Shown: one piece after another, positions 26,405-42,978 of the stretch | Position numbering within the stretch: position 1 is the stretch's first letter | Layout of the letters: the number at the start of each line of letters is the position of its first letter | NCBI GenBank assembly: GCA_964387845.1 | Contig: CAYLXA010000002.1 | Location: 1 to 64,000, forward strand | From: an uncultured bacterium | GTDB lineage: Bacteria > Omnitrophota > Omnitrophia > Omnitrophales > Abzuiibacteriaceae | Direction of reading: 5' to 3' | Length of the DNA stretch: 64,000 nucleotides | Notes under the pieces: model-generated | What the model saw: only the letters and a program-made list of their open reading frames with translations | Databases searched by the model: none | What the model was told of the DNA's origin: nothing | Translations under genes and position numbers: made by a program

Positions 26405-26412
26405 AGTAGAAA

Positions 26413-27330: not shown

Positions 27331-28589
27331 GTCCTATCGTCTCCTTGAAGAAAACAGCCAATTTCTTTGACAATATTATCGGAATTTTGCCGCACATCCC
27401 GAAGTCCTTGATTAATGAGGTTTATCAGGGCTGTGCGGTCTTTACAAGCCTCCTCAAACAGGGGTTTAAACCGCTCAAGAGAGAATTGGTCGCATGGCAG
27501 GTAAAATTTTTCCATCTGAAATTCAGCCAAAACCTCCTCGTACTTGTAATCGCCCCATCCAATCGTGATTGGCGGAACTCCGGTGGCCAGGGAAGAAACC
27601 ATTGCATGAAAACGCGAGACAACATTCAGGTGCATCTGCCCCAGGATAGCGCGCAGGGTGCGCGCATCCAGATCGGCATCTAAATAGTGAAAAGCTACGC
27701 GATTATCGAGCCGCTTTATGATTTCCATGCAAATTTGCCGGTCGTTGTTGTGCAGGCCTGTTTTTAGATCGCGATAGCTGTGGGGAATCAAGACCGGTAG
27801 AAAATCTCTTCGTCCAACATCCTCAATGCAGGCAGCCATGCAACCAATATAATCAAGGTTACGTTTTTTTGATTTCTGGAACACGATGCTGTTGGGCGCG
27901 AAGGCGATTGGTTTTTTGCCTGGATGCTGGCCTAGAAATCGATCCAGATTTGCAATGGCCGGATTTTGATTCACAATTTCCGTATACAAAGGAATTTTCA
28001 TCGAGAATGACAAATCCGGTTGGTAGCTGACACGATTAATGCCAAGACGCCGCACGGCCGAAGCGCTTCGTTTGCCGCGTCCTTGAATACCGGAGGCGTG
28101 CTTGATAACTCGTTCGGCAGCCATCCGGTTGAGCGGTTGATCAAGCGGCCCTATGGTTTGTGAAAGAAATATAATTTTCGCGCCAAGCCAAATGCCGGGA
28201 AGAGCGGCAAGCGCGTTCCACGGAACTTTGTGGAGCATGCTGTCCGCGAAAGTGGTGCCGCCCATCAATAATACGGCGTCTGCTTTTTGCACTGCTTCGA
28301 TTGCTTTCCGCCATTTCTCGGAAACCAGCGACGGCAAGACTTTATTTAAGAGAATCGCAGGCAGGAAGCCAAAAAAGAGATCCAGCGGATGTCCGGGATG
28401 GATGTGTACATCGGGAAATTCGGGAGACAGTTTTTTATCGCGTTCAGGATAATAGCTAAAAACATCGAATGAAACAGGGGTCCCGGCTTTTTGAAAGACA
28501 TCCCTCAGGCCTAAAAACATGCTGACAGAGCCTTTGTTGCCGGACAGCGGTACGGCAAAAGTAGCGAAACGCATTTGTTTATTCATCAC
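27327..28589 (-). CDS. Polysaccharide pyruvyl transferase (WcaK/CsaB family)
   Basis: C-terminal RFHAMVSSLATGVPPITIGW motif typical of PF04230. Context is a polysaccharide locus. Confidence 0.6.
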   Translation of the reverse strand: MMNKQMRFATFAVPLSGNKGSVSMFLGLRDVFQKAGTPVSFDVFSYYPERDKKLSPEFPDVHIHPGHPLDLFFGFLPAILLNKVLPSLVSEKWRKAIEAVQKADAVLLMGGTTFADSMLHKVPWNALAALPGIWLGAKIIFLSQTIGPLDQPLNRMAAERVIKHASGIQGRGKRSASAVRRLGINRVSYQPDLSFSMKIPLYTEIVNQNPAIANLDRFLGQHPGKKPIAFAPNSIVFQKSKKRNLDYIGCMAACIEDVGRRDFLPVLIPHSYRDLKTGLHNNDRQICMEIIKRLDNRVAFHYLDADLDARTLRAILGQMHLNVVSRFHAMVSSLATGVPPITIGWGDYKYEEVLAEFQMEKFYLPCDQFSLERFKPLFEEACKDRTALINLINQGLRDVRQNSDNIVKEIGCFLQGDDRT

Positions 28590-29754
28590 GATTTTTACAA
28601 CCCAGTGTATTGTTTAATAACTTGATGAACGCAATATAAAAGTAGAGGAGCGGCCTTGGAATTAAAAGAAAGAAACGCCGGCCCCAACCGGTTTGACTTA
28701 AGCGGTTGTTGGCCAATAGTAGAAAATATGTCAGAAAACTTCGCAGCCGGAATGTTGCTTCTTTCATTCCCGTTTCCTTGACGGGATAGCCGGCGAGTTT
28801 GCAGGCGTAATAACGGCTTTTCAGATCCCTGGACGGCACCAAGATTCGTTTTTGTGCCTGAAAAATAGACAGCGGATCAATTTTTTCGCAAATGATTGTT
28901 CTTTCGCGCATGGCTCCGGAAAACAAGTCTTCACCGGCCTGTGTCCGGACCAACACGGCCGAATGCTTGATCGGATTTCCGCGGTATGGTGGTATAAAAA
29001 TATCGCCAATGCTGATATCGCTTAAGGCACCCAAATGATCATCGCAGTAGCGGCACATGGCCTTGCCGAATAATCCCAAGCTCCGATAAACATTGAAATC
29101 GCGAAAAGGGAGCAGACGCTCTTTGCCGTCGCGCATTAAAAATCGAACATTGCCTCCGAGATAGCCGCGATCGACCTTCATCGAGCAGATTTCTGATTCC
29201 GGAATTTTCGATTTTCTGAGAACAAACGGAAATAATTCTCTTTCGTTATTATGGCCGCAAAAAAGGCTGATGAGAAGTTTGACGTTTCGGAACCGGGCAT
29301 CCTTTTCCATTCGGCTTCGAAGAATGCTGGTATGGCAGGGGAGCGCACAAATTGCCAGACGTCCCTTGAATGCCGCTATTTCTGACGCGTATTTCTCGAG
29401 CGGGATATTAAAGTAAGCGCTTGATGCAAAATCGTCAACCTCGCGCGGACTGGTCACGATTTTAATTTCGTAATCGAGTTTTTGCTTTGAAAAATCAGAT
29501 CGCGCCAGGACTGCGCCGTCGATTATTTTCCGTTCAAGCGCGAACTTGATCAGCGCGGAAGCAACACCGCCCGAAGCTGCTTTTTGTCTTTTGGATGCAT
29601 CGGCTGCGTAGCCGGCGTAAGCATTCCGAAACGGGCCGAGATAGCTTAGGCGGACGTCACTGCTTTCTCTGAACCCCGACGAAAAGAAGCCTTCTTCATT
29701 GGCTTGAATTTGTTCCATATCAATCCGGTAAGAATACGAACTTGAAATAAGCAA
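28579..29754 (-). CDS. Coenzyme F420 hydrogenase beta-subunit-like (FrhB-family) protein, the usual pyruvyl-transferase partner
   Basis: GGVASALIKFALE N-terminal region. Cys-rich CALPCH and CRYCDD. Adjacent to the pyruvyl transferase. Confidence 0.5.
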   Translation of the reverse strand: MLISSSYSYRIDMEQIQANEEGFFSSGFRESSDVRLSYLGPFRNAYAGYAADASKRQKAASGGVASALIKFALERKIIDGAVLARSDFSKQKLDYEIKIVTSPREVDDFASSAYFNIPLEKYASEIAAFKGRLAICALPCHTSILRSRMEKDARFRNVKLLISLFCGHNNERELFPFVLRKSKIPESEICSMKVDRGYLGGNVRFLMRDGKERLLPFRDFNVYRSLGLFGKAMCRYCDDHLGALSDISIGDIFIPPYRGNPIKHSAVLVRTQAGEDLFSGAMRERTIICEKIDPLSIFQAQKRILVPSRDLKSRYYACKLAGYPVKETGMKEATFRLRSFLTYFLLLANNRLSQTGWGRRFFLLIPRPLLYFYIAFIKLLNNTLGCKNRDE

Positions 29755-30121
29755 TAATTCTAAGCACGAAAATCACGGCAGTTGTCAGACAAACCGACAC
29801 GATAGGATTGACCCCGGCCGCATATACGAAAACGTTAAAAAGGACATTGTCAAAAATTTTAAAGAAAGCAGCTTGCTGGATGTAGCGCGAAAAAGTTTTG
29901 CGGCTAAGCGGGATTCTGAAAGAAATTTTTGAATTAAAAATCCATGCGCCGGGCAGCATGACGATCGTCACAATTGCATAGTTTGCCCAGTTCGCCAAAG
30001 GCGTCCATTGATGAATCAGCGCTACGAGCAGTGTTTTGAGCAAGAAAAAAAGAACGGAGCCGCTCGTGATTAACAGCAGTGTTTTTCCACGTGCCTGATC
30101 GGGGGTGTTATGGGGCATCAT
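29720..30121 (-). CDS. GtrA-family small membrane protein
   Basis: 133 aa with four TM helices. Sits in a polyprenyl-P-sugar context. Confidence 0.55.
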   Translation of the reverse strand: MMPHNTPDQARGKTLLLITSGSVLFFLLKTLLVALIHQWTPLANWANYAIVTIVMLPGAWIFNSKISFRIPLSRKTFSRYIQQAAFFKIFDNVLFNVFVYAAGVNPIVSVCLTTAVIFVLRIIAYFKFVFLPD

Positions 30122-30968
30122 GAGGTTTTGTGCCAGCCTTTTTGAACAGCTTCTTGGCCCAACGGATCAGAGCCGGATGTGTCAGGCTTTTGATAATCCA
30201 AAAAATGGAAGAAACCAGGCGGTTTGAGCGCCACGGATCGGTTGGCCGAGGTTTAAAAACAGTCCCGTGGGGGATAAAAATCTTCGTCTGCTCCGGTTTT
30301 TCTTTGGTGAAGTAATAAAGCTGTATCGATTTCCGGGTCATGGAGTCGGGGCAGTTGAGCGGATCGGGCACGCCATGGTAACCGGTTTCGGTTGATGTAA
30401 AAATAACACATCGGTTAAAAACGGGTAAAATTTTTTGGATGCGCTCGGTGGCTGTTTCGTTCCATAGTTCAAGCGCGCCTCCGTATTCATCTTTCCAGTC
30501 CTTATTCAGGTAGAACAAAAAGTTAATTCTCCGGTACAACTTAAGTTCTGCATGCCAGTTGAAATCCGCATGAAGCGCTAATCGGCCGTCGCGCTTAAAG
30601 TGACGAAGCGCTTGCCCGATATCCGGATCCGGAATCAAATGAGGAATGCCGCTTAATGTTTCCACAAACCGGATAAACTCGGGTTTGTTGAGATATTCGA
30701 GAAGCGAGCGTATGAAAGGGCTCATTTGCGTTTCGGACAGCGATTGATATTTTTGTGTCCTCACGGCAGAGGCGTCGTAATTGATCCACATGTCTTGCTG
30801 AAGGCTTGGGAATTCGGCATGAATTTGCTCTGCTACCGCCGGCGGGAAAAAATCATCAAATATAGCGTGCGGAAACGGTTTTGCCGTTTGGTATGGACCG
30901 GCATTTTCTTTGGCCAGTTGGTCCAAACGATTTGGGTCGCAAAAAGCTAGCGAAGAAGGTGAGTTCAC
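30108..30968 (-). CDS. 2OG-Fe(II) oxygenase superfamily protein
   Basis: LHADFNWH (HxD) and a downstream His in a double-stranded beta-helix-like region. Family assignment is tentative. Confidence 0.45.
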   Translation of the reverse strand: MNSPSSLAFCDPNRLDQLAKENAGPYQTAKPFPHAIFDDFFPPAVAEQIHAEFPSLQQDMWINYDASAVRTQKYQSLSETQMSPFIRSLLEYLNKPEFIRFVETLSGIPHLIPDPDIGQALRHFKRDGRLALHADFNWHAELKLYRRINFLFYLNKDWKDEYGGALELWNETATERIQKILPVFNRCVIFTSTETGYHGVPDPLNCPDSMTRKSIQLYYFTKEKPEQTKIFIPHGTVFKPRPTDPWRSNRLVSSIFWIIKSLTHPALIRWAKKLFKKAGTKPHDAP

Positions 30969-32575
30969 GTTGCAACGCCCCCCTCGCTTCTCTCGAGGCG
31001 TTTCAAAATTCCATAACGTCCCCAGTTTTTGACAACTCTATATTGCGACAAAAATTCAGGCGGAAGATGAAGGTAGGCGATTAATTCGTTAATTTTTTCA
31101 GGCGGAAACTGCGGCTCGCGCTCTGTCAGAATCCAAACCGGTGGATCCTTAACCACAATCTGCTCCCAAACGCTTTCCAACTGTTTGCCCGGAGCGGGGA
31201 CGATTTCTAGGCGTAAATCCCACAAAAATGGAACGCCCCGATAGCTGTCGCGGCCCGTTAAGGCGTTGATGATCTGCAGATTGGTTAGAATCAAAAGAGA
31301 ATCTTCTTTTGGAATTTCGGTTTTAACAAATTCGATCATTGGATTGAGAGCGCGGTCGGGATCCTCGCCGACCAACCAGCCTTCGAAAGGGCCCTTTGTA
31401 AAACTATAAGAAGCAACCGGAAAAAATGCAAATTTCCCCTGAGCTCTGCCAAAAGAGTAGGTTGAAACATAGACGATCTGCCAAACCGAGATACCGATTA
31501 AACAAGTTATGGAAACCGCGTAGAATGTTTTTTCAAAAACATTTCGGTAGTACGCTTTTGATTGATAGAGCAGCATGAAAGCTAGCGCCATCGCGACGCC
31601 ATACAGCGAAATATTGCTCGCCTCGCGAAGAGATCCGGTATTCAGTGTAAAAATGGCTGTTGCGATGATTCCGAAGAAAAGAAAAACAATCCGGAGCCCG
31701 GATTTTCTCAGGTAGAAAAGATTGAGCAGAACAACCAGGAAAGGGACCCAGTAGTGGCTCTTCAGGAAGGTTTCGAAAACAACAAAACGGAGAAGGCGTT
31801 GGGAAGCGCTGGCGCCATACGTCGTGAAAACATTTTCAATCAAAGCAGCCGGTGCCGGAATTAATAGAAATATCAACCCTAACGCGGCAAAAATGCCTGA
31901 TGCGTAACCCAATAAGAGCTTCCCGCTTCGAAAGGAGAGGGCATATAACCCAAACACAAGCAAAAAACATGCTCCGATATTGGTTTTGGTCATAAAAGAA
32001 AGAAGCGCCATCGCGCCGCACCAAAACGTAATCCAAAAAGCCCTGCCGCCTAAATGACCTGCGTCAATTTGGATCAGCAGCCAAACAGCCATAACGCCGA
32101 ACAGAAAAGCGGAGTGGTCATACCAAGGATGCGGAAACCACCAATAAAATCCCACAACGCTCAAAAGAGTGGCGATCAACGTGAGTATCAAAGGCATCCT
32201 GCGCTGCGCTATGAAAAAAGTTGCCGCAGCTACGAGCGAGCTGACAGTGATTAAGTGAGTTAAAATCGCAGATTTTCCGAAACCAAGTAAAAAAAAGAAA
32301 AAGGCATTCATGTAAAGATGAATTGGGCCCGTTGTGTAGATAAAATCAATATAAGGTTTTTGGCCCTTGTAGATTCTCCAGCTGGCGTCTAGAAATGCGC
32401 CATGATCGACCAAATTAAAACCTCGAAATGCAAAATACGCCAGAACGAAAGCGTTGCCCAGAAGGATGAAAGCGAGAATTAGCTTGGCCCTGTTAAGCCG
32501 CGTCGGGTCGTTTTTGGGGGAACCGGCAAGAAAATCAATCGTTTCTGTCAGTTTATTTGCTAAAATATTTATCAA
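30965..32575 (-). CDS. Polytopic membrane protein, GT-C-like (PMT_2/ArnT-like)
   Basis: About 12 TM helices plus a C-terminal soluble ~100 aa. Confidence 0.4.
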   Translation of the reverse strand: MINILANKLTETIDFLAGSPKNDPTRLNRAKLILAFILLGNAFVLAYFAFRGFNLVDHGAFLDASWRIYKGQKPYIDFIYTTGPIHLYMNAFFFFLLGFGKSAILTHLITVSSLVAAATFFIAQRRMPLILTLIATLLSVVGFYWWFPHPWYDHSAFLFGVMAVWLLIQIDAGHLGGRAFWITFWCGAMALLSFMTKTNIGACFLLVFGLYALSFRSGKLLLGYASGIFAALGLIFLLIPAPAALIENVFTTYGASASQRLLRFVVFETFLKSHYWVPFLVVLLNLFYLRKSGLRIVFLFFGIIATAIFTLNTGSLREASNISLYGVAMALAFMLLYQSKAYYRNVFEKTFYAVSITCLIGISVWQIVYVSTYSFGRAQGKFAFFPVASYSFTKGPFEGWLVGEDPDRALNPMIEFVKTEIPKEDSLLILTNLQIINALTGRDSYRGVPFLWDLRLEIVPAPGKQLESVWEQIVVKDPPVWILTEREPQFPPEKINELIAYLHLPPEFLSQYRVVKNWGRYGILKRLERSEGGVAT

Positions 32576-32690: not shown

Positions 32691-33395
32691 ATGAAAATCA
32701 CCCTCCTGATTATGACCTGGAACGAAATCGATGGAATGCGTGTGATCATGCCTCAGATCAAGAAAGAGTGGTATGACCAGCTCATCGTGGTTGATGGCGG
32801 GTCGACGGACGGAACAATTGAATACGCAAAAGAATGTGGTTACGAAGTATATGTACAGAAACAAAAAGGGTTTCGGCACGCGTATACGGAAGTGATGCCT
32901 TATGTTAAAGGTGATGTCATTGTTACTTTTAGCCCGGACGGTAATTCAATTGCCGAGCTGATTCCGGAGCTTAATAAAAAAATGCGCGAAGGCTACGATA
33001 TGGTCATCGTTTCGCGGTATTTGGGGAAAGCAAAAAGCAAGGATGATGATTTGGTGACGGGATTTGGCAATCGGTTATTTACAGGAACCGTAAATTTGCT
33101 TCATGGCGGGCATTATACGGATGCCATGGTGATCTTTCGCGCTTACCGGAAACAGATCGTTTACGATTTAGATTTAGACAAAGAAGAAAGCTATTCGTTT
33201 CCGGAAAAATTATTCAACACCAAAATCAGCTGGGAGCCGCTTTTGTCTGTTCGCGCTGCGAAGCGTAAATTAAAGGTCTCAGAAATTCCGGGCGACGAGC
33301 CGCCGCGAATCGGCGGCGAGAGAAAACTACAAGTACTTAAGTGGGGCGCGGCCTACTATTACCAATTCATCAGCGAAGTGTTTTGTTGGCGTTAA
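32691..33395 (+). CDS. GT2 glycosyltransferase
   Basis: ITLLIMTWNE. VVDGGSTDGT. Confidence 0.7.
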   Translation: MKITLLIMTWNEIDGMRVIMPQIKKEWYDQLIVVDGGSTDGTIEYAKECGYEVYVQKQKGFRHAYTEVMPYVKGDVIVTFSPDGNSIAELIPELNKKMREGYDMVIVSRYLGKAKSKDDDLVTGFGNRLFTGTVNLLHGGHYTDAMVIFRAYRKQIVYDLDLDKEESYSFPEKLFNTKISWEPLLSVRAAKRKLKVSEIPGDEPPRIGGERKLQVLKWGAAYYYQFISEVFCWR

Positions 33396-33419: not shown

Positions 33420-34355
33420 ATGGCAAAAATCTTGGTAACCGGAGGAGCAGGGTATATCGGATCTGTTTTAGTGCCTACGCTTCTCAAAGAAAAGCATGAA
33501 GTAACCGTGCTTGATAATCTCATGTACCAGCAATCCTCGCTGTTGGATGTTTGTTACGATTCTAATCTCACGGTAGTGCGCGGAGATGCCCGCGATGAAA
33601 AACTGATCGCAGGTCTGGTCAAAACCGTCGATTATATTTTCCCGCTCGCATGTTTGACGGGAGCGCCCCTTTGCGACAAAGATCCTTTCGCGGCCAAAGA
33701 AGTGAACTTAGATGCTATTTTGTTAATTTTAAAACACCGCAGTAAGAATCAGCGCGTAATCTATCCGACGACCAACAGCGGCTACGGAATCGGCCAAAAA
33801 GGAATCCATTGCGATGAAAAAACGCCGCTCAATCCGATTTCGCTCTATGGCAAATTAAAAGTTGAGGCTGAAAAGGCGATTTTGGATTCCGGAAATGCGG
33901 TTACCTTTCGTCTCGCAACGGCGTTCGGCATCAGTCCGCGGATGCGGCTTGATTTGTTGGTGAACGATTTTGTCTACCGAGCGATTAATGACCGTGCTGT
34001 GATTCTTTTTGAAAGTCATTTCAAGCGTAACTATGTCCACGTTCGCGATATTTCGCGAGCATTTGTGCATGCGGTGAATCATTTCGATAAAATGAAAAAC
34101 GAACCGTACAATGTCGGTTTAAGCGACTGCAATTTAAGCAAAAAAGAATTGTGCGATGAAATCAAAAAGCAGGTTCCCAAATTTTATTATGTTGAGTCGG
34201 CAATTGGCGAAGACCCGGATAAACGCGATTACATCGTGAGCAACGAAAAAATCGAGAAAACAGGGTTCAAAACCGAGCATCCGTTGACGGTTGGGATACG
34301 AGAGCTGATCAAGGGGTATCAAGTTATCAAACGGAGTCAATACGGAAACGTTTAA
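33420..34355 (+). CDS. NAD-dependent nucleotide-sugar epimerase/dehydratase (SDR)
   Basis: ILVTGGAGYIGS Rossmann motif. YGKLK catalytic Yxxx K. Confidence 0.8.
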   Translation: MAKILVTGGAGYIGSVLVPTLLKEKHEVTVLDNLMYQQSSLLDVCYDSNLTVVRGDARDEKLIAGLVKTVDYIFPLACLTGAPLCDKDPFAAKEVNLDAILLILKHRSKNQRVIYPTTNSGYGIGQKGIHCDEKTPLNPISLYGKLKVEAEKAILDSGNAVTFRLATAFGISPRMRLDLLVNDFVYRAINDRAVILFESHFKRNYVHVRDISRAFVHAVNHFDKMKNEPYNVGLSDCNLSKKELCDEIKKQVPKFYYVESAIGEDPDKRDYIVSNEKIEKTGFKTEHPLTVGIRELIKGYQVIKRSQYGNV

Positions 34356-35348
34356 ATGGCGAAATCAACTTCACCAAAAAATAAAGAAATTCTAATCTCG
34401 CTTTATAAAGCGATGCTGAAAATCCGCCGTGCGGAGGAAAAAGTGGCGGAACTTTATCCGTCCGACAAAATCCAAAGCCCGATTCATCTATGCATCGGAC
34501 AGGAGGCTATTTCAGCGGGCGTTTGCCTTGCCATGAAACAGTCAGATCATCTTTATGGAACTTATCGCGGCCACGGTGTTTATTTGGCAAAGGGCGGCAG
34601 CATGAAACAAATGTTTGCCGAGTTGTATGCGAAAGACACGGGTTGTGCGGGCGGTCGCGGCGGCTCCATGCATTTGATTGCGCCCGAAGTTGGCTTGATG
34701 GGATGTTCAGCGATTGTGGCCAGTACGATTCCGCTGGCGGTGGGCGATGCGCTTGCCACAAAGATGCGGAAGAAAAATGATGTAACCGTGACTTTTTTTG
34801 GCGACGGTGCTATCGGCGAAGGCGTTTTCTTTGAAAGTTTGAATTTCGCGGCGTTGAAAAAGCTGCCCGTGGTCTTTGTCTGTGAAAATAACAATTACGC
34901 GGTTCATTCGCGCGTCTCAGACCGCCATAAACAAACCGATCTTTATAAGTACGCGCAGCCTTTCGGAGTTCCGTCTAAACGTTTAGATGGCAATGATGCC
35001 TTGTTAGTTTATGAATCAATGTCGGATGCGATTGCAAAAGCACGGAAGGGCAGCGGTCCTATCTTTATTGAATATATGACCTACCGCATTTATGAACATG
35101 TGGGCCCGTCCAAGGATCATAAAGAGGTGTACCGCGAGACAAAAAAGTTAAAAAATGCCGAAAAAAACGATCCTGTCATTCGATTGGGAAAAGAGCTGCG
35201 TCAAAAATACAAGATTCCTGAATCTGTATTTGCTGAATGGGAATCTGAATTACAGAAAGAGGTCGAGAGCGCGGTCCAGTTCGCAGAAAAAAGTCCGGAG
35301 CCCCCAGCTAGCCGTTTGTACGAGCACATCTATTTGGAGAGATCATGA
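34356..35348 (+). CDS. TPP-dependent dehydrogenase E1 alpha subunit (pyruvate/acetoin dehydrogenase E1 family)
   Basis: HLCIGQEA. YRGHG. GGRGGSMH. TPP motif GDGAIGEG..N. Confidence 0.8.
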   Translation: MAKSTSPKNKEILISLYKAMLKIRRAEEKVAELYPSDKIQSPIHLCIGQEAISAGVCLAMKQSDHLYGTYRGHGVYLAKGGSMKQMFAELYAKDTGCAGGRGGSMHLIAPEVGLMGCSAIVASTIPLAVGDALATKMRKKNDVTVTFFGDGAIGEGVFFESLNFAALKKLPVVFVCENNNYAVHSRVSDRHKQTDLYKYAQPFGVPSKRLDGNDALLVYESMSDAIAKARKGSGPIFIEYMTYRIYEHVGPSKDHKEVYRETKKLKNAEKNDPVIRLGKELRQKYKIPESVFAEWESELQKEVESAVQFAEKSPEPPASRLYEHIYLERS

Positions 35349-36376
35349 GCATTATCAGCTACGGCGAAGCCAATAAACAGGCGCTGACACTGGCGATGGA
35401 ACGCGACCCGAGCGTTTTCTTGATGGGAATCGGTGTAGATGACCACAAGGCCATTTTCGGTAGCGTGCGCGGCATGGTCGAACAGTTCGGCAAAGAGCGT
35501 ATTTTTGATACGCCGATTGCGGAGAGCGGGATGACGGGAATCGCGATTGGCGCCGCGCTAAACGGTATGCGGCCTGTCCATATTCATATCCGCGCCGACT
35601 TTTTATATTTGGCGATGGACCAGCTTTTTAATATTGCAGCGAAGTGGCATGCGATGTTTGGCGGAAAAATGAGCGTTCCGATTGTGATTCGCGCCGTGAT
35701 CGGCCGCAGCTGGGGGCAGGGTGCGCAGCATTCCCAAAGCCCTCAGGCCATGATTGCCCACGTTCCGGGTATTAAATTAGTAATGCCGACCACAGCGTAT
35801 GACGTGAAGGGCTTGCTGCTCAAAGCAATTACCGATCCAAATCCGGTGGTGATGATTGAACATCGCCTGCTTTACGACATTAAAGGAGAGGTGCCGGATG
35901 GTTATTATGAAATTCCATTCGGAAAGGGTGTTGTAAGACGAACCGGAAAGGATGTTACGATTGTCGCAACTTCCTATATGGTTGTTGAGGCATTGAAAGC
36001 TGCCGAATTTTTAACGAATCAGGGAATTGAGGTCGAGATCATTGACCCGCTTACACTGGTTCCGCTGGATGAAGAATTGATTCTGCGATCAGTTCAAAAA
36101 ACCGGCAGAATGCTGGTTGCGGATACCGGCTGGACCAATTGTGGCGTGAGCGCTGAAATTTCCGCGCGTGTTGCAGATCTCGGTTTTTCGTCACTCAAAG
36201 GCCCGATTCGCCGGCTCGGCATGGCGCCCACTGCTTGTCCGGTCAGCAAAGCCCTTGAAAACGCCTTTTATCCAAACGCTAAAACGATTGTCCAGCAAGT
36301 TTGCGAAATGTTGGGCGAGGCGGTTCCAAATGTAGAAGTCCCGCTTTTGGAAAGCAAATTCAAAGGGCCGTTTTAA
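35345..36376 (+). CDS. TPP-dependent dehydrogenase E1 beta subunit (transketolase-like)
   Basis: FGKERIFDTPIAESGMTGIAIGAALNGMRPV typical of E1 beta. ATGA coupling to E1 alpha. Confidence 0.8.
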   Translation: MSIISYGEANKQALTLAMERDPSVFLMGIGVDDHKAIFGSVRGMVEQFGKERIFDTPIAESGMTGIAIGAALNGMRPVHIHIRADFLYLAMDQLFNIAAKWHAMFGGKMSVPIVIRAVIGRSWGQGAQHSQSPQAMIAHVPGIKLVMPTTAYDVKGLLLKAITDPNPVVMIEHRLLYDIKGEVPDGYYEIPFGKGVVRRTGKDVTIVATSYMVVEALKAAEFLTNQGIEVEIIDPLTLVPLDEELILRSVQKTGRMLVADTGWTNCGVSAEISARVADLGFSSLKGPIRRLGMAPTACPVSKALENAFYPNAKTIVQQVCEMLGEAVPNVEVPLLESKFKGPF

Positions 36377-37560
36377 TGATTAAATATCATTTAGCTAAAG
36401 ACACAATTGATGAAAAAGATATTCAGGCACTGATTGAGTGGCTTAAATCCTACCCACGGCTCACGAAAGCAAATCTCACGCTTCAATTTGAAGAGCGGTG
36501 GAGCAAATGGCTTGGAAAGAAATATTCAACCTTCTGCAATTCCGGCTCATCCGCAAATTTGTTGATGTATTACGCGCTGCTAAGTTCCAAAAAGCTTAAA
36601 AATAAAAAAGTCGTCGTACCGACTGTTGGATGGGTGACCACCATTGCGCCTGCCATTCAATTCGGCTTTGAGCCGATCATGTGTGAAGCTGATCCCGACA
36701 CTTTTGGCCTTGATTTGGGTCATCTGGAAAAACTTCTCAAGAAGCACAATCCCGGCACGGTAGTGTTGGTACAGGTGCTCGGCGTTCCTCATAAAATGGA
36801 CGAAATTTTGGCGCTTAAGAAAAAATACGACTTCTATTTGTTGGAAGATGCCTGCGCTTCAATCGGTTCCACATATCACGGTAAAAAAATTGGGCAGTTC
36901 GGTGATATGGCAAGCTTTTCGTTCTATTTTGGACATCAAATGTCAACCATCGAAGGCGGTATGGTATCGACGGACAATAAAGAGTTTCAGGATTTATTAT
37001 TGATGCTTCGAAGCCATGGCTGGAGCAAGGATTTAGACGCAAAGACTCATGATGCGCTCGTTGAGCAATATAAAATTGATGACTTTCATACGCCCTTTGT
37101 TTTTTATGAGCCGGGGTTCAATTTGCGCTCAACCGACCTCAACGCATTTCTGGGGCTTCGGCAATTGGACAAGCTCGATTGGATGATTTCGCGGCGTGAT
37201 GAAAATCATAAGCTCTATTATAAACTCTTGGCAAATCAGTTTTACGCTCAGAAATATGCGGATCCAAAAGCAAATGTTTCAAGTATCTCATTTGGTGCTT
37301 TGGCCGCTGATCCGGAAGAGCGGCGCAAGGTCGTGAAGGCTTTGGTGCAGAACGGGATTGAAACCCGGATTTTTTCGGCAGGAAATCTAGGTTTGCATCC
37401 GTTTTGGTATAACCGATACGGAAAAGCGAGCTTTCCGGTTGCCGATAAAGTACACCATTGCGGATTTTTCCTTCCAAATCATCCGTCGCTTGCGACGAAA
37501 GATGTTGAATTTGTGGCGCAGGTAACCTTGGATGCGGTATGCACGGGAAAATCCTCGTAA
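36376..37560 (+). CDS. DegT/DnrJ-family PLP enzyme of the 3-dehydratase type (ColD/E1-like, His replaces the PLP lysine)
   Basis: FSFYFGHQMSTIEGG has His where aminotransferases have Lys, as in ColD/AscC. TAATG overlap start at 36376. The ORF-track 5' extension was rejected. Confidence 0.65.
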   Translation: MIKYHLAKDTIDEKDIQALIEWLKSYPRLTKANLTLQFEERWSKWLGKKYSTFCNSGSSANLLMYYALLSSKKLKNKKVVVPTVGWVTTIAPAIQFGFEPIMCEADPDTFGLDLGHLEKLLKKHNPGTVVLVQVLGVPHKMDEILALKKKYDFYLLEDACASIGSTYHGKKIGQFGDMASFSFYFGHQMSTIEGGMVSTDNKEFQDLLLMLRSHGWSKDLDAKTHDALVEQYKIDDFHTPFVFYEPGFNLRSTDLNAFLGLRQLDKLDWMISRRDENHKLYYKLLANQFYAQKYADPKANVSSISFGALAADPEERRKVVKALVQNGIETRIFSAGNLGLHPFWYNRYGKASFPVADKVHHCGFFLPNHPSLATKDVEFVAQVTLDAVCTGKSS

Positions 37561-38468
37561 CCGGCGGCACAGGTCTTTTGGGATCAGCGCTTCAAAAGCA
37601 GTGTCCGGATGCGGTTTATGTTGGAAGTAAAGATTATGACTTGAGACGGTTTGATGAGGCTGAGAGGATGTTTGGCGAAATAAAACCAACCCGCGTGATT
37701 CATCTTGCGGCCAATGTGGGTGGGGTGAAGAAAAACGCGGAGCAAAATGCCACACTTTTCTCGGACAATGTTTTAATCAACACCAATGTGATTGAGGCTG
37801 CAATTCAAGGCGGTGTTAAGCGGTTGATTTCAATTTTATCCAGCTGTTGTTTTAAAATTTATCCGGACAAGCCGTCAACAGAGAGCGATTTGCATGAAGG
37901 TGCGCCGTTTGCCGGCAATTTGGGCTATGGTTATGCAAAGCGAATGCTGGACATCCATAGCCGCTTAGCGTGGGAGCAGCATCGGCTGCAGTTTTCATCG
38001 ATCACTCCAGCGACAATGTATGGGCTTAACGATAACTGGGATCTAGAAAGCGGACATGTGGTGGCTGCGTTAATCCGCCGGACGTTTATAGCGAAAGAAA
38101 GGGGCGAGCCGTTGACTGTTTGGGGAAGTGGAAATGCTGTCCGCCAATTTGTCTTAGCAGATGATGTCGCGAGGCTGCTTTTAGAGGAGATTGATACGTT
38201 TGATGGCCCCGACAATATGATCGTAGCACCGGATTCGGGTGTCTCGATACGCGATTTAACAAGCATGATCGCGGAGCTGATGAATTTTAAAGGAGAAATT
38301 ATTTTTGACCAGTCGAAACCGGAGGGACAATTAAAGAGAGTGTTGATCAGTGAGAAATTTAAAAAGCGGTATCCCGAATTTAGCTTTACACCGCTTCGCA
38401 GCGGCTTAAAAATGACCATTGATTGGTTTCTCAAAAACTATAAAACAGCAAGGGTTTTGAAGGTGTGA
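37539..38468 (+). CDS. NAD(P)-dependent nucleotide-sugar epimerase/reductase, GDP-L-fucose synthase (Fcl/ColC)-like
   Basis: ILVTGGTGLLGSAL. SSCCFKIYP. YGYAK. Follows the ColD-like gene. Confidence 0.7.
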   Translation: MHGKILVTGGTGLLGSALQKQCPDAVYVGSKDYDLRRFDEAERMFGEIKPTRVIHLAANVGGVKKNAEQNATLFSDNVLINTNVIEAAIQGGVKRLISILSSCCFKIYPDKPSTESDLHEGAPFAGNLGYGYAKRMLDIHSRLAWEQHRLQFSSITPATMYGLNDNWDLESGHVVAALIRRTFIAKERGEPLTVWGSGNAVRQFVLADDVARLLLEEIDTFDGPDNMIVAPDSGVSIRDLTSMIAELMNFKGEIIFDQSKPEGQLKRVLISEKFKKRYPEFSFTPLRSGLKMTIDWFLKNYKTARVLKV

Positions 38469-38469
38469 C

Positions 38470-39516
38470 ATGATTATTAGCCGAACCCCTTTTCGTGTTT
38501 CTTTTTTAGGCGGCGGAACCGATTACCCCGGTTGGTACCGTGAGCATGGCGGAGCCGTGTTGGCGACAACCATTGATAAGTACTGCTATATTACTTGCCG
38601 CTATCTACCCCCATTTTTTGAGCATAAAAGCCGCATCATGTATTCCAAAATCGAGTGCGTTCAGTCCAATAAAGACATCGAACATCCCTCTGTGCGGGAA
38701 ACTTTGAAATATATGAATATCCAAGAGGGGATTGAGATTCATCACGACGGCGATTTGCCTGCCCGCGCCGGTTTGGGATCAAGCTCTGCTTTTACAGTGG
38801 GATTATTGAACGCGCTTTATGGCCTTAAGCGTAAAATGTCGTCTAAAGAAGATTTGGCAAAGGAAGCGATTCATGTGGAAAGAGATCTCCTGAGCGAGAA
38901 TGTGGGATCTCAAGATCAGGTACAGTCGTCGTTTGGCGGTTTGAATCACATTGAATTCCTCAAAAACGGACAATTTAACGTTTTTCCGATTGTTTTGAAG
39001 CATGAGCGCCTTCAAAGTTTTCAAGATCATCTTTTGCTGTATTTTACGGGTTTCTCGCGTTTTGCTTCAGACATTGCAAAAGAGCAAATTGATTCGATTG
39101 CGAAAAAACAAAATGAGCTTAAAGCGATGGGGCAAATGGTTGGTGAAGGCCTCAAGATTCTTACGGGTGACGCAAGCTTGTTGGAATTTGGAAAATTGCT
39201 GCATGAAAGCTGGACATTGAAGCGGAATTTGACTAACCGGATTTCAACACCTGCCATTGATCAAATTTATGAAGAAGCGCGGAGGGCAGGCGCCGTGGGC
39301 GGAAAGCTGCTCGGGGCCGGCGGGGGCGGTTTCGTTCTTTTGCTGGTTGAGCCCGGTAAACAGCAAAAAGTAAAGGATGTGCTGCAAAAATTATTGCTGG
39401 TCCCGTTTCAATTCGAAAACACGGGAACGCAGGTTGTTTTTTACCGCCCTCCCAAGGAAAGTACCGAAATGAGTTGGTTTAAGTTCCAAAAGGAGCGGGA
39501 AGCTTCGCAAAAGTGA
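38470..39516 (+). CDS. GHMP sugar kinase (HddA-like D-glycero-D-manno-heptose 7-phosphate kinase family)
   Basis: PFRVSFLGGGTDYP N-terminus. GHMP motif PARAGLGSSSA. C-terminal GAGGGGF. Confidence 0.7.
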   Translation: MIISRTPFRVSFLGGGTDYPGWYREHGGAVLATTIDKYCYITCRYLPPFFEHKSRIMYSKIECVQSNKDIEHPSVRETLKYMNIQEGIEIHHDGDLPARAGLGSSSAFTVGLLNALYGLKRKMSSKEDLAKEAIHVERDLLSENVGSQDQVQSSFGGLNHIEFLKNGQFNVFPIVLKHERLQSFQDHLLLYFTGFSRFASDIAKEQIDSIAKKQNELKAMGQMVGEGLKILTGDASLLEFGKLLHESWTLKRNLTNRISTPAIDQIYEEARRAGAVGGKLLGAGGGGFVLLLVEPGKQQKVKDVLQKLLLVPFQFENTGTQVVFYRPPKESTEMSWFKFQKEREASQK

Positions 39517-40238
39517 ACAAACGCCTGACCGATCCAGCACACATTGACGTGTTAATTATTTGCGGAGGGCTGGGGACGCGCCTCCGTTCTGTCGAGCCCG
39601 ATGCGCCCAAAGGCATGGTTGTTATTGAAGGAAAACCGTTTCTTGAAATTCTGATTGATCATTTGCGTCATTCCGGTTTTCGGCGTTTTATTCTCTGCAC
39701 CGGTTACGGCGCCAAACGTTTTCGGCAGCATTTTGAAGCGGCCAAACAGTCAGAAATTATATTTTCCGAAGAAGTAAAGCCGCTGGGCACGGCCGGAGCT
39801 GTCAAGCAAGCCGAAAAACTCATAAGCAGCGATCAGCAGTTGGTGTTAAATGGCGATTCTTTGTGCTTGGCGGATTGGCAGGAGCTATTACGCTTTCATG
39901 CATCGCATCAGGGGTTGGCAACGCTTTTGGTAACTCAGGACCGAGAGCGAACGGATGTGGGCGGAATCAAGTTTGATCACAACTTCGGCGTAACGCAATT
40001 TAAAGAAAAGGAAAAAGAATCGACCCCATATATTAATGCGGGTATTTATATTTTTGAGCGCCGGTTATTGGAATTGATTCCGAAAAATCAAAAAATTTCT
40101 TTGGAGGAACAAATTTTTCCAAAGCTGAACGAAACCCAACTGTTTGCTTGCGTATCATTAGCAACTGTGTATGATATTGGAACGCCCGAACGTTTAGAGA
40201 AATTTAAACAACTTTATTCTGCAGGAAAATTCAATTAA
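39513..40238 (+). CDS. Sugar-1-phosphate nucleotidyltransferase (HddC/mannose-1-P guanylyltransferase-like)
   Basis: ICGGLGTRLR nucleotidyltransferase motif. About 240 aa. Coupled to the kinase. Confidence 0.7.
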   Translation: MNKRLTDPAHIDVLIICGGLGTRLRSVEPDAPKGMVVIEGKPFLEILIDHLRHSGFRRFILCTGYGAKRFRQHFEAAKQSEIIFSEEVKPLGTAGAVKQAEKLISSDQQLVLNGDSLCLADWQELLRFHASHQGLATLLVTQDRERTDVGGIKFDHNFGVTQFKEKEKESTPYINAGIYIFERRLLELIPKNQKISLEEQIFPKLNETQLFACVSLATVYDIGTPERLEKFKQLYSAGKFN

Positions 40239-40243: not shown

Positions 40244-41794
40244 ATGGTTAATACAAAAAATAAACTTGATGTCTTGCTCATTAATCCTGGCAATTTGATC
40301 CAGGTTTACCAAACGCTGGGACTCAATATTTCTGCTATCGAGCCGCCGGTTTGGTCCGGGTTGATGGCCACTTTCGTTCGGCGCAAAGGCTGTTCCGTTC
40401 AAATTCTGGATGCTAACGCCGAGAATCTGACCCCTGCTCAAACTGCGCAAAAAGCGCTTGAGTTGAAGCCGCTTCTGATCGCTGTTGTTGTTTACGGACA
40501 TCAACCGTCGGCTTCGACGCAAATTATGCCGGCGGCAAGTTCAATTTGCTCCGCGATTAAGGCGCAAGACCCAAGCCAAAAGGTGTTTTTGGTTGGCGGG
40601 CATGTCTCGGCGCTGCCTGATCGGACGCTGAGCGAGGAAAGTGCAGATTTTGTGTCGAGCGGCGAGGGGCCGCACACGCTTTTAGAGTTAATTGAGGCGC
40701 TGAAAGCCGGCGGCTCCGAAAATTTAAAGAAGGTTCGCGGATTACTTTATAAAGAAAACGGGAAAATTCAGTTCAACGCACCGGCACCACTCGTCAAAAA
40801 CTTGGATGAAGAAATGCCTGAAATGGCCTGGGATCTTTTGCCTATGGAAAAATACCGGGCGCACAACTGGCATTGTTTCGGTCATTTAGATAAACGCGCG
40901 CCTTATGCTTCGTTTTATACCACGCTCGGGTGTCCGTATCACTGCACTTTTTGTTGTATTCAGTCGCCTTACAAAACCGGAGAAAAAGAGTCTGGTTTGA
41001 AGGAGGAGATTAACAGCTATCGCTTCTGGAATCCCAAAACGGTTGTCGATCAAATCGGAAAATTAGTCAACGAATACGGAGTCCGCAATATTAAGATCGC
41101 AGACGAGATGTTTGTTCTCAATGCGCGTCATGTATTTGGTATTTGCGATTTGATCATTGAGCGCGGTTATGATTTGAATATTTGGGCGTATGCACGCATT
41201 GACACAATTAAGGACAATATGCTGGACAAATTAAAGCGTGCGGGTGTGAACTGGCTCGCGTTTGGCATCGAGTCGGGTAGCGAGCGTGTCCGAGATAATG
41301 TGGACAAAGCGTTTGACCAAGAGGACATTCGCAAAGTAATTCAAAAAGTGAAAGATGCTGGTATTAACATCATCGGAAATTATATCTTCGGGCTACCGGA
41401 AGATGATATGAATTCAATGAAAGCCACTCTGGATTTAGCGCTCGAACTTAATTGCGAATTTACCAACTTTTATTGCGCGATGGCGTATCCCGGGTCTCCT
41501 TTGTATCAGCAGGCTATCCGTGAAAAATGGGCATTACCAAAAGCCTGGAGCGGTTATTCTCAGCATTCGGTCGATATGCTTCCGCTTGCCACAAAACACC
41601 TCCCGGCTTCTGACGTTATTCGGTTTAGAGACCAGGCATTTGAGGTTTATTTTAAATCACCTAAATATTTAGAGATGGTGCGCCAAAAATTCGGCGAAGA
41701 AACTTTAAAACATATCCAGGCAATGCTTTCACATCAGCTTAAACGACAATTCGTTTCTTCAAGCACGTCAAAAACCTCATCGCAAAAGAGTTGA
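40244..41794 (+). CDS. Cobalamin-binding radical SAM enzyme (class B, probable sugar C-methyltransferase)
   Basis: N-terminal B12-binding-like domain. Radical SAM cysteine cluster GCPYHCTFCC. Confidence 0.7.
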   Translation: MVNTKNKLDVLLINPGNLIQVYQTLGLNISAIEPPVWSGLMATFVRRKGCSVQILDANAENLTPAQTAQKALELKPLLIAVVVYGHQPSASTQIMPAASSICSAIKAQDPSQKVFLVGGHVSALPDRTLSEESADFVSSGEGPHTLLELIEALKAGGSENLKKVRGLLYKENGKIQFNAPAPLVKNLDEEMPEMAWDLLPMEKYRAHNWHCFGHLDKRAPYASFYTTLGCPYHCTFCCIQSPYKTGEKESGLKEEINSYRFWNPKTVVDQIGKLVNEYGVRNIKIADEMFVLNARHVFGICDLIIERGYDLNIWAYARIDTIKDNMLDKLKRAGVNWLAFGIESGSERVRDNVDKAFDQEDIRKVIQKVKDAGINIIGNYIFGLPEDDMNSMKATLDLALELNCEFTNFYCAMAYPGSPLYQQAIREKWALPKAWSGYSQHSVDMLPLATKHLPASDVIRFRDQAFEVYFKSPKYLEMVRQKFGEETLKHIQAMLSHQLKRQFVSSSTSKTSSQKS

Positions 41795-42978
41795 CTCAGT
41801 CGCGATCAACGCAGAAGCAATGGATAGTTATCGGCGGCGGCATTATTGGCACCGCGGTTGCCCTGGCTCTTGCTAAGCGCAAAGCTGGCTCAATCTTAAT
41901 TCTAGAGAAAGAATCTTCGCTCGGGCTTCATCAAAGCGGTCGCAACAGCGGTGTCATTCATTCCGGGATTAATCAAAAACCCGGAAGTTTGAAAGCAAAA
42001 ATGTGCGTTGAGGGCAGCCGGCGCTTGCGAGAATATTGCAGACAGCGGCGGATTGTGATGAATGAATGTGGGACTTTAGTGATTGCGCGTCATGCCGAAG
42101 AGCTGGCAACCCTAGACCGTCTTTTAAAAATGGGTGTCGAGTGCGGCGTTGAGGGGTTGATGTTAATCGGCCGCGATGAATTGATTGAGCGGGAACCGAT
42201 TGCCAAAGGCGATAGTGCTCTTCTGTCTCCCTCAGGCGCAACCGTTGATTCTGAAATGCTCCTCAAATCTCTTGCGCAAGATGCGCGCGAGGTCGGTGTT
42301 GAGTATAAAATGGTCCATCGCGTTTTAAAAATCGAAGGAAATACGGTCTATACCAACCAAGGGAGTTTCAACGCCGAATACATCATTAATTGTGCGGGGC
42401 TTTATGCAGATGAAATTGCGCATATGATGAACGCAGGGAGAGGTTATCGGATTATTCCATTTCGCGGCGAGTATATGGAAGTCAAAAATTGCGATGTGAA
42501 ATCAATGGTTTATCAGGCTCCTGATCTCCGGTTTCCGTTTTTGAGCATTCATTTAACCCGGGAAACGGACGGAAGAGTGCTTGCCGGGCCTAGCGCAGTT
42601 TTGGCGTTTGGCAGGGAAGCATATGAGAAGGAATGGGATTGGCGTGAAATGGGCCGCATGTTTACTAGTATGCAATTTTTACGGATGGTTATCAGACCAG
42701 AGTTTGTGCAGCTAGCTTCCGAGAATTTGAAAACATCGCTATCAGCAAATAGTTTTTTGGAGCAGATTCAGTCTCTGGTTGCAGGTGTAACGCAAGAACA
42801 GATTGTGCCGCATCGGGCCGGAATCCGAGCTCAGATGGTGGATCAAAGCGGTAAATTGGTTGATGATATTTTGGTGGAACATCAACCGTCGGCAACGCAT
42901 GTGCTGAATGCAGTATCTCCCGGAATGACGTGCAGTCTGGCATTTGCAGACTATTTAGCGGGGCAAATTTTAAATTAG
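41791..42978 (+). CDS. FAD-dependent oxidoreductase (DAO/LhgO family)
   Basis: IVIGGGIIGTAVALAL dinucleotide motif. Coupled to the radical SAM gene. Confidence 0.7.
   Translation: MTQSRSTQKQWIVIGGGIIGTAVALALAKRKAGSILILEKESSLGLHQSGRNSGVIHSGINQKPGSLKAKMCVEGSRRLREYCRQRRIVMNECGTLVIARHAEELATLDRLLKMGVECGVEGLMLIGRDELIEREPIAKGDSALLSPSGATVDSEMLLKSLAQDAREVGVEYKMVHRVLKIEGNTVYTNQGSFNAEYIINCAGLYADEIAHMMNAGRGYRIIPFRGEYMEVKNCDVKSMVYQAPDLRFPFLSIHLTRETDGRVLAGPSAVLAFGREAYEKEWDWREMGRMFTSMQFLRMVIRPEFVQLASENLKTSLSANSFLEQIQSLVAGVTQEQIVPHRAGIRAQMVDQSGKLVDDILVEHQPSATHVLNAVSPGMTCSLAFADYLAGQILN

Follow-up and report, generated by a model that had tools for sequence, protein, structure and literature searches.

Gene content of the locus

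The 64,000-nt stretch of DNA examined here, referred to below as the window, comprises positions 1 to 64,000 of contig CAYLXA010000002.1 from an uncultured member of the Omnitrophota, and encodes both subunits of a thiamine diphosphate (ThDP)-dependent E1 component of the pyruvate dehydrogenase (PDH) and acetoin dehydrogenase type within an operon of sugar-related genes. All genes of the operon lie on the forward strand, in the order family 2 glycosyltransferase (GT2), short-chain dehydrogenase/reductase (SDR), E1 alpha, E1 beta, DegT-family protein, Fcl-like SDR, GHMP kinase, nucleotidyltransferase, B12-binding radical S-adenosylmethionine (SAM) enzyme, FAD oxidase and a third SDR, and the last of these is followed by polytopic membrane proteins and more GT2 genes (Table 1). 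An earlier note, made from the sequence alone, had reported a split E1 alpha/beta pair at 34356-36376 among sugar genes and without E2 or E3. Pfam and motif scans bear this out, and the coordinates are exactly those of the two open reading frames (ORFs).

Table 1. Features of the E1-containing operon and its C-terminal tail signature, with positions in the window
Feature	Position	Strand	Remarks
Small soluble GT2, polyprenyl-phosphate-sugar-synthase-like (AglJ / Dol-P-hexose-transferase-like)	32691-33395	+	Operon head
SDR, Cj1427-like	33420-34355	+	Directly upstream of E1 alpha; PDB 6VO6/6VO8 match
E1 alpha (ThDP/Mg-binding subunit)	34356-35348	+	330 aa; Pfam E1_dh over whole length, E 3.2e-74, 250 bits
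E1 beta (pyrimidine-binding and C-terminal domains)	35345-36376	+	343 aa; Pfam Transket_pyr 7e-32 and Transketolase_C 8e-34
E1 beta C-terminal extension	36302-36373	+	24 residues, ends FKGPF-COOH
ColD-type pyridoxal/pyridoxamine phosphate (PLP/PMP) sugar 3-dehydratase (DegT family)	36376-37560	+	Directly downstream of E1 beta
GDP-L-fucose-synthase-like SDR (ColC/Fcl-like)	37539-38468	+	Candidate epimerase and/or branch ketoreductase
GHMP kinase, heptose-phosphate-kinase-like (HddA/WcbL-like)	38470-39516	+	
Sugar-1-phosphate nucleotidyltransferase, HddC-like (heptose-1-P guanylyltransferase-like)	39513-40238	+	
B12-binding radical SAM enzyme	40244-41794	+	Pfam B12-binding and Radical_SAM
FAD-dependent L-2-hydroxyglutarate oxidase (LhgO-like)	41791-42978	+	Pfam DAO 9e-54
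Third SDR (epimerase/reductase), accessory tailoring	42994-43968	+	Pfam Epimerase 2e-42; PDB GDP-fucose synthase 84 bits
Polytopic GT-C-type (PMT_2 / ArnT-like) glycosyltransferase	46035-47963	+	Pfam PMT_2 1.5e-8; 11 transmembrane (TM)-like segments

The E1 alpha/beta pair

The E1 genes are tightly packed with their neighbors. The E1 alpha and E1 beta ORFs share a 4-nt overlap, the stop codon of the upstream SDR at 34355 directly precedes the E1 alpha ATG, and the E1 beta TAA is overlapped by the ATG (36376) of the downstream ColD-like gene; these start/stop overlaps place the pair in a translationally coupled operon. The GDG149-151 and ENNNY177-181 motifs and H248 of E1 alpha, and the catalytic Glu60 (TPIAE) and His129 (QHSQ) of E1 beta, are kept in every group compared, and, judged from these alignments, the ThDP/Mg2+ motif and the catalytic machinery are intact. 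In the PDB comparison E1 alpha scored 216 bits against pyruvate-specific E1 and 140 bits against branched-chain E1, and the top match of E1 beta was the Geobacillus stearothermophilus E1 beta (239 bits). Neither subunit reaches the curated PDH E1 cut-offs of the NCBIfam equivalog and subfamily models: E1 alpha scored 329.6 bits against PDH_E1_alph_y (TIGR03182, cut-off 393.85) and 242.4 bits against TIGR03181 (cut-off 411.35), and E1 beta scored 316.7 bits against PRK09212 (cut-off 321) and 293.7 bits against PRK11892 (cut-off 454).

Assignment to several other types of system was considered and rejected. A split transketolase is incompatible with the Pfam scores of E1 alpha (Transketolase_N 28.7 bits, E1_dh 250 bits), as is membership of the YerE type, a single-chain acetolactate-synthase-like protein (TPP_enzyme_C 25.6 bits, E1_dh 250 bits). 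A phosphonate pathway with phosphonopyruvate decarboxylase and aminoethylphosphonate transaminase was dismissed since the window encodes no phosphoenolpyruvate mutase and its ThDP enzyme belongs to the E1 type.

Absence of E2 and E3 partners

Pfam detected no lipoyl, 2-oxoacid_dh or E3 dimerisation domain in any window ORF of 150 aa or more, the full set of which was scanned, and a six-frame motif scan of the 64 kb found neither the E2 catalytic motif DHR..DG nor an E3 redox-disulfide or lipoyl motif. The E1 genes lie ~28 kb from either end of the window, which excludes E2 or E3 genes located just outside it in the same operon, an arrangement that had been raised in the earlier note. The E2/E3 motif scans were likewise negative in the relatives L002-L018 (numbers with L denote related loci) and in 80 metagenome loci, or ~95 related loci; the single DHR..DG match, in L015, falls in an antisense ORF without a Pfam match. 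When 85 loci from species-representative genomes were compared for an E2 next to the E1, none was present in L002-L017, whose E1 alpha is at least 43% identical to the query, and an E2 catalytic motif occurred 2-4 kb downstream on the same strand in 40 of the 67 more distant E1 loci.

A distinct E1 clade and its C-terminal tail

Phylogeny also sets the pair apart from E2-linked E1s. In a neighbor-joining tree of 83 E1 alpha sequences, which were picked by similarity to the query and include no biochemically characterised branching enzyme (AviB1, AlmDI, KbDH-alpha), the 21 E2-less sequences form one bipartition in 96 of 100 bootstraps, and the seven sequences from loci with the gene cassette described below form a clade in 90 of 100. 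The E2-less bipartition includes a Kutzneria pair that is followed by an EryCIII-like natural-product glycosyltransferase gene and has a GP[FY]-type C-terminal tail. Changes specific to the clade are S41, K168 and E247 (Gly in E2-linked E1s) in E1 alpha, together with an insertion in the loop after H248; in human E1 the loop after the catalytic His lines the substrate channel. The E1 beta of the clade differs from E2-linked E1s at positions 35 and 122.

The most conspicuous feature of E1 beta is its C-terminal extension. The ending F[KR]GPF is shared by 7/7 cassette and 79/80 metagenome loci, with the variants F[TSI]GPF and VVGPY in remoter E2-less loci, and the tail is absent from all 48 E2-linked E1 beta sequences examined, which have 3-13 aa after the same column. 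Solved E1 beta chains stop ~5 residues past the aligned region and lack the extension. The tail extends from the region that, in the 1W85 complex, binds the peripheral-subunit-binding domain of E2. Its F[KR]GPF ending may serve as an annotation signature for E2-less, glycan-linked E1 beta proteins.

Related E1 beta proteins were also seen in another setting. In a Nitrospirota metagenome-assembled genome (MAG; L008, 10961-12703), a related E1 beta appears to continue in frame into a GT2 domain, to a total of 580 aa, and lies between two radical-SAM/SPASM genes. In L066 the GT2 is encoded separately. These two loci represent a different, also E2-less, glycan-linked use of E1 alpha/beta.

Predicted ketone-forming and deoxygenating enzymes beside the pair

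The SDR preceding E1 alpha matches PDB 6VO6/6VO8 over its full length (386 bits, E 1e-114, 55% identity over 308 residues), with the runner-up PDB match at 87 bits. We take 6VO6 to be the Campylobacter jejuni protein Cj1427. Cj1427 works by a ping-pong mechanism in which its tightly bound NADH is re-oxidized by alpha-ketoglutarate, yielding L-2-hydroxyglutarate (PMC10680097). By analogy, the SDR is predicted to carry out a Cj1427-type oxidation at C4, and the co-located L-2-hydroxyglutarate oxidase gene is the one feature here that supports a possible alpha-ketoglutarate ping-pong mechanism for it. The product of that gene scores 359.7 bits against the NCBIfam L-2-hydroxyglutarate oxidase model PRK11728, above the cut-off of 299, and is predicted to re-oxidize the L-2-hydroxyglutarate released by the Cj1427-like enzyme.

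The DegT-family gene following E1 beta was called mechanically from a TTG at 36301, but the ATG given in Table 1 is the likelier start. Its top PDB matches are ColD (2GMS, 182 bits) and the CDP-hexulose 3-dehydrase E1 (3BCX, 131 bits); ColD is GDP-4-keto-6-deoxymannose 3-dehydratase. His212 (FYFGHQMSTIEGG) aligns with ColD His188, which stands in for the Schiff-base Lys, and this column is pinned by the ColD mutant entries 3B8X (H188N) and 2R0T (H188K). Every cassette locus has His at this position, as do 57/57 metagenome loci in which a DegT-like gene adjoins the pair, and the true aminotransferases in L016 and L034 carry the Lys motif HPLKN at this site. The aminotransferase label of this neighbor was not borne out: with ColD and the E1 dehydrase as best matches and His in place of the catalytic Lys, an aminotransferase reading was rejected, and models of an aminated branch or an N-acyl amino sugar were dropped because the gene encodes a dehydratase. 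The ColD-type enzymes of C. jejuni remove the 3-hydroxyl from GDP-4-keto-heptoses, with conversion of L-glutamate to alpha-ketoglutarate and ammonia (PMC10440746).

The cluster in L034 (6836-12774), from a single-cell genome of a member of the Pelagibacteraceae (SAR11), comprises, in this order, an SDR, two DegT aminotransferases with the HPLKN motif, an E2-less E1 alpha/beta pair with a GPF-type tail and a GT2. This content suggests that a bacterium very abundant in the sea makes a branched amino sugar.

Conservation of the cassette

The nearest E1 alpha homologs are 55-74% identical and come from uncultured bacteria, those named being Elusimicrobiota, Omnitrophota and Acidobacteria. The gene order SDR - E1 alpha - E1 beta - DegT-like - SDR - GHMP kinase - (nucleotidyltransferase) - B12-radical SAM recurs in the contigs of these homologs. 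Remoter versions of the cassette, at 46-47% identity, were seen in one MAG each of the Legionellales, the Rhodospirillaceae and the Alphaproteobacteria. In the Legionellales version (L007) a GDP-mannose-4,6-dehydratase-like gene lies beside the C4-dehydrogenase gene, and in the Rhodospirillaceae version (L010) such a gene apparently takes its place; L010 also carries an aldo-keto reductase, a family that includes Pau7, the enzyme responsible for reduction of the paulomycose acetyl branch. One remoter variant has a GmhA-like SIS gene, and such genes are found in at least 12 cassette loci.

When metagenomes were scanned with E1 beta, at least 577 relatives were recovered; the best 80 of these, 49-73% identical to the query, were analyzed. 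In the 28 metagenome loci that are well flanked (at least 4 kb on both sides), a Cj1427-like gene (50-73% identity) was present in 25, a ColD-like gene in 25 and a heptose-kinase-like gene in 23, followed in frequency by a nucleotidyltransferase (15), a homologous B12-radical SAM gene (13) and a GT2 (8). B12-radical SAM genes lie alongside the cassette in many loci. The conserved core is thus the E1 alpha/beta pair with the ColD-like protein, the Cj1427-like protein and the heptose kinase; the Fcl-like SDR, the L-2-hydroxyglutarate oxidase and other reductases are accessory.

Proposed pathway

PDH-E1-like pairs are known to add a pyruvate-derived two-carbon branch to the sugars of avilamycin, paulomycin, aldgamycin and kibdelomycin (PMC4802897, PMC10338323, PMC12247030), so that the comparison with branched-sugar pathways envisaged in the earlier note yields a precedent. 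The protein similarities, the His-for-Lys signature, the absence of E2 and E3, the co-occurrence of the cassette genes, the separate clade and the C-terminal tail were all computed directly from the loci. The suggestion of the earlier note that the pair would transfer two carbons onto a keto-sugar, and not serve central metabolism, finds support in the sub-cut-off scores, the lack of E2/E3, the 96/100 bootstrap value and the coupling to 4-keto-sugar genes. The E1 alpha/beta pair is probably an E2-independent, ThDP-dependent heterotetrameric E1 (alpha-KADH2) carboligase that would convert pyruvate to hydroxyethylidene-ThDP and transfer the two-carbon unit to the C4 carbonyl of a GDP-3-deoxy-4-keto-heptose, leaving a tertiary alcohol that bears an acetyl branch. 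The likeliest product of the operon is a 3-deoxy seven-carbon sugar of the cell surface that carries a two-carbon branch.

The kinase and the nucleotidyltransferase of the operon also point to a heptose, more weakly. The top PDB matches of the kinase are the heptose kinases 3K85 (140 bits), 4USK and 4N3O, with mevalonate kinase at 73 bits, and those of the nucleotidyltransferase are 6JQ8/5XHW (120 bits), a Yersinia "6-deoxy-D-mannoheptose pathway protein" that we take to be HddC.

In the proposed route, GDP-heptose would be formed by the HddA-like kinase and the HddC-like nucleotidyltransferase, with GmhA and GmhB encoded elsewhere. The Cj1427-like SDR would oxidize C4 with alpha-ketoglutarate as the oxidant and L-2-hydroxyglutarate as the by-product, the ColD-like enzyme would strip the C3 hydroxyl while converting L-glutamate to alpha-ketoglutarate and ammonia, and the E1 alpha/beta pair would put a pyruvate-derived acetyl group on C4. 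The SDRs may then reduce and/or epimerize the branched product, with further tailoring by the B12-radical SAM enzyme, and the LhgO-like oxidase would return L-2-hydroxyglutarate to alpha-ketoglutarate. The ColD-type step would thus yield one alpha-ketoglutarate for each one used by the dehydrogenase, and the L-2-hydroxyglutarate oxidase would close the loop. The finished sugar would be loaded onto polyprenyl phosphate by the small GT2, and the lipid-linked sugar used by a GT-C enzyme outside the cytoplasmic membrane.

A number of points weigh against this scheme. Each catalytic step was predicted from phylogeny, synteny, signatures and sequence identity, and so were pyruvate as the donor, the acceptor, the order in which the steps occur and the destination. 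The choice of GDP-heptose is a best guess based on best-hit similarity and the 55% identity to the 6VO6 protein, as gmhA and gmhB are not found in the 64-kb window; the identity of 6VO6 as Cj1427, the alpha-ketoglutarate-dependent GDP-heptose C4-dehydrogenase, is itself presumed. The kinase scores 144.7 bits against NCBIfam HddA, far under the cut-off of 600, and the nucleotidyltransferase scores 129 bits against HddC, again far under its cut-off of 300. The LhgO-like gene is accessory and confined to the closest relatives, with a 75% identical copy in L002/L003 and occurrence in 2 of the 28 well-flanked loci, and the sampling of the E1 alpha tree noted above belongs here as well. The Fcl-like SDR and the ColD-like gene resemble the ColD/ColC pair of colitose synthesis, by which the 4-ketone could be reduced before branching on a route to an unbranched 3-deoxy-heptose; the Fcl-like SDR is treated here as a tailoring enzyme because it is kept only in the closer relatives and lies outside the conserved core. 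We know of no natural glycan with a 4-C-branched heptose, and no paper linking a heptose, a PDH-E1-like pair and a 3-dehydratase was found, within an incomplete coverage of the literature.

Alternative explanations

Could the pair be an ordinary pyruvate or acetoin dehydrogenase E1 that lies among sugar genes and uses E2 and E3 encoded elsewhere in the genome? The top database similarities are indeed PDH E1 alpha and beta, all catalytic residues are kept, including the His residues of reductive acetylation, and the E2/E3 search of this genome spans the 64-kb window. This explanation is nevertheless highly improbable given the failure of both subunits to reach curated PDH cut-offs, the start/stop overlaps with sugar genes, a gene order that is the same over several phyla and ~60 loci with not one E2 or E3, a clade apart from E2-linked E1s, and an E1 beta extension absent from every E2-linked homolog. 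A role that involves no carbon-carbon bond to the sugar ring appears improbable too. The pair would here be a stand-alone 2-oxo acid decarboxylase or acyloin synthase, supplying an aldehyde, acyloin or acyl unit for O- or N-acylation or for an acetal, and PDH E1 enzymes do perform carboligation and decarboxylation side reactions with small aldehydes (PMC7696235). Decoration genes, including those for a pyruvyl transferase and a 2-oxoglutarate-Fe oxygenase, are present in the wider locus, but the core cassette has neither an acyltransferase nor an aminotransferase (the DegT-like protein being a dehydratase), and the E1 genes are tightly and conservedly coupled specifically to two enzymes that form a ketone acceptor.

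It is also conceivable, though unlikely, that the carboligase chemistry is as proposed and the substrates are not. The acceptor might be a 4-keto-heptose that has not yet been, or is never, deoxygenated at C3, or else a 3-keto tautomer or a different NDP-sugar, and the donor might be another 2-oxo acid, for example hydroxypyruvate or the 2-oxoglutarate formed by the LhgO-like oxidase; the branch would then differ. The alpha-KADH2 enzymes branch either C3 or C4 depending on the natural product, the kinase and nucleotidyltransferase fall under the equivalog cut-offs, the operon encodes an enzyme that forms 2-oxoglutarate, and YerE-type enzymes accept C2 to C8 donors (PMC9306805). On the other hand, the adjacency of the ColD-like and E1 alpha/beta genes, co-conserved in 57 loci, favors a 3-deoxy-4-keto acceptor, E1 alpha is nearer to pyruvate-specific than to branched-chain E1, the known alpha-KADH2 branching enzymes appear limited to C2 donors, and most cassette loci lack an LhgO-like gene. 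The last point bears on 2-oxoglutarate in particular, which was considered a less likely donor since most cassette loci have no LhgO and Cj1427-type chemistry accounts better for the gene where it does occur. Transfer of a pyruvate-derived two-carbon unit to a GDP-3-deoxy-4-keto-heptose remains the preferred reading.

Remaining genes of the operon and its surroundings

The small GT2 at the head of the operon (Pfam Glycos_transf_2, 7e-14) has no TM-like segment and matches the NCBIfam AglJ and Dol-P hexose transferase models at 75.7 and 65 bits, both far under cut-off; homologs with 53-75% identity are present in several cassette loci. The Fcl-like SDR is similar to the GDP-L-fucose synthase 4E5Y (240 bits) and scores 189 bits against NCBIfam Fcl, below the cut-off of 500. 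For the B12-radical SAM enzyme, the top NCBIfam match is HpnJ (168 bits, under cut-off) and the top PDB match is AprD4, a weak one at 60 bits; C-methylation or radical dehydration of the sugar are candidate roles. Homologs of the third SDR, at 52-58% identity, occur in L007, L089, L091 and L159. The GT-C protein encoded further downstream is tentatively regarded as a candidate periplasmic transferase for the lipid-linked sugar.

Upstream of the operon, a type II secretion/type IV pilus-like operon (8393-21139) encodes a T2SSE-PilZ ATPase, T2SSF, two pseudopilins, PilMN, PilO and T2SSK, and the same arrangement is found in a 74%-identity relative (L003, 1-1448). It contains an STT3/PglB-type oligosaccharyltransferase gene (17176-19800; 874 aa, ~9 TM-like segments), which suggests that a pilin-like protein is N-glycosylated, the glycans possibly coming from the adjacent island. 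The divergent operon at 22845-32575, on the reverse strand, encodes a 2-oxoglutarate-Fe(II) oxygenase, an FrhB/FdhB-like protein paired with a polysaccharide pyruvyl transferase, a GT2, and four proteins without a Pfam match, of which three are polytopic (7-9 TM-like segments) and one is a 142-aa protein with a single TM-like segment. Downstream, between GT2 genes, lies an ORF of 1074 aa (49777-53001) that combines a spermidine-synthase-like domain with ~9 TM-like segments and, at its C-terminus, TPR repeats. After it come an AsnB-type amidotransferase (53974-55875) and, on the opposite strand, a further PMT-type GT-C protein (55872-57812). Beside the glycosylation island, a saccharopine-dehydrogenase-like gene adjoins an ornithine/diaminopimelate/arginine-decarboxylase-like gene on the reverse strand (57802-60415); these two form the usual carboxy(nor)spermidine dehydrogenase/decarboxylase pair of polyamine synthesis. 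At the other end of the window, 2169-8386 holds an ATP-synthase-like set in an odd order (a 474-aa ORF, alpha, a b/delta fusion, gamma and beta).

Implications

Taken further, the observations allow a broader picture, which we offer tentatively as a serious possibility that falls somewhat short of probable. Many uncultured bacteria of soil, groundwater and sediment may make an undescribed surface 3-deoxy-4-C-acetyl (or 1-hydroxyethyl) heptose, tailored by a B12-radical SAM enzyme, through a pathway that is self-balancing in alpha-ketoglutarate and closed by a dedicated L-2-hydroxyglutarate oxidase. The responsible E1 alpha/beta clade would be marked by an F[KR]GPF tail that may replace E2 docking, and the sugar would be delivered via polyprenyl phosphate to a periplasmic GT-C enzyme, possibly onto the STT3-glycosylated pilin encoded 15 kb upstream.

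If branching of this kind does take place, E2-free E1-type sugar branching, so far confined to a few antibiotic pathways of actinomycetes, would extend to cell envelopes across many uncultured phyla, and one would expect branched higher-carbon sugars of a new class. It would also make available to biocatalysis a large family of ketone-accepting carboligases that form tertiary alcohols and are recognizable by the F[KR]GPF tail. The presence of an L-2-hydroxyglutarate oxidase in the operon would constitute genomic support for the alpha-ketoglutarate/L-2-hydroxyglutarate ping-pong and its recycling in vivo, so far seen only in vitro with Cj1427. The present names of these genes (pyruvate/acetoin dehydrogenase E1, "DegT aminotransferase") would then be adding PDH and an amino sugar wrongly to metabolic reconstructions from MAGs.

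Comparison with known systems

With PDH and acetoin dehydrogenase E1 alpha2beta2 proteins, such as human 1NI4 and G. stearothermophilus 1W85, the pair shares the fold families, the ThDP motif and the catalytic Glu and His (216 and 239 bits). It differs from them in its sub-cut-off scores, the absence of E2 and E3, the altered loop after the catalytic His (E247 and the insertion) and the 24-residue E1 beta extension.

The C. jejuni capsular heptose pathways (HddA/HddC, Cj1427, the HS:5 C3-dehydratase and Fcl-like C4-reductases) resemble the operon in the 55% identity of its SDR to the 6VO6 protein and in the homologs of ColD-type, Fcl-like, heptose kinase and guanylyltransferase proteins. The cosubstrate pairs of the C. 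jejuni enzymes, alpha-ketoglutarate/L-2-hydroxyglutarate and glutamate/alpha-ketoglutarate, are those proposed here, but the pathways described include no ThDP enzyme, branched heptose, L-2-hydroxyglutarate oxidase or B12-radical-SAM gene (PMC10680097, PMC10440746).

The chemical order proposed here is identical to that established for the yersiniose A pathway (CDP-glucose 4,6-dehydratase, E1/E3 3-dehydrase, YerE and YerF, with ErwE/MyGE relatives in lipopolysaccharide), which likewise makes a sugar of cell-surface polysaccharide. There, a 4-keto sugar nucleotide is deoxygenated at C3 by a PMP/PLP enzyme with His in place of Lys, an acyl branch derived from a 2-oxo acid is added at C4 by a ThDP enzyme, and the product is reduced (PMC9306805). 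The yersiniose route differs in that YerE is a single-chain flavoprotein of the acetolactate-synthase/decarboxylase type, the nucleotide is CDP, the sugar is a 3,6-dideoxyhexose and the ketone is formed by a 4,6-dehydratase.

The nearest functional precedent is the alpha-KADH2 set, namely AviB1/AviB2 of avilamycin, Plm8/9 (= Pau11/12) of paulomycin, AlmDI/DII of aldgamycin, EvdU5/EvdS3 of everninomicin and KbDH-alpha/beta of kibdelomycin. Two-carbon branching of the avilamycin, paulomycin, aldgamycin and everninomicin sugars by these E1-type pairs was assigned by genetics, and KbDH-alpha/beta couples pyruvate, its sole donor, to cyclic ketones in vitro. As in the present operon, these enzymes are two-subunit PDH-E1-like ThDP pairs without E2 or E3, encoded beside genes for making keto-sugar nucleotides. 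The known examples place an acetyl branch at C3 or C4 of dTDP- or UDP-linked 6-deoxyhexoses or pentoses in secondary metabolites of Gram-positive actinomycetes, whereas the acceptor predicted here is a GDP-3-deoxy-4-keto-heptose whose ketone would come from a Cj1427-type and ColD-type pair, and the genes lie in an envelope glycosylation island, beside GT-C and polyprenyl-phosphate GT2 genes, in uncultured bacteria whose named relatives include Elusimicrobiota, Omnitrophota, Acidobacteria and Legionellales. The two-carbon branching chemistry itself is known from AviB1/B2 and KbDH; what is new is the predicted heptose substrate, the route to the ketone, the cofactor-recycling gene, the envelope context, the breadth over uncultured phyla and the tail signature.

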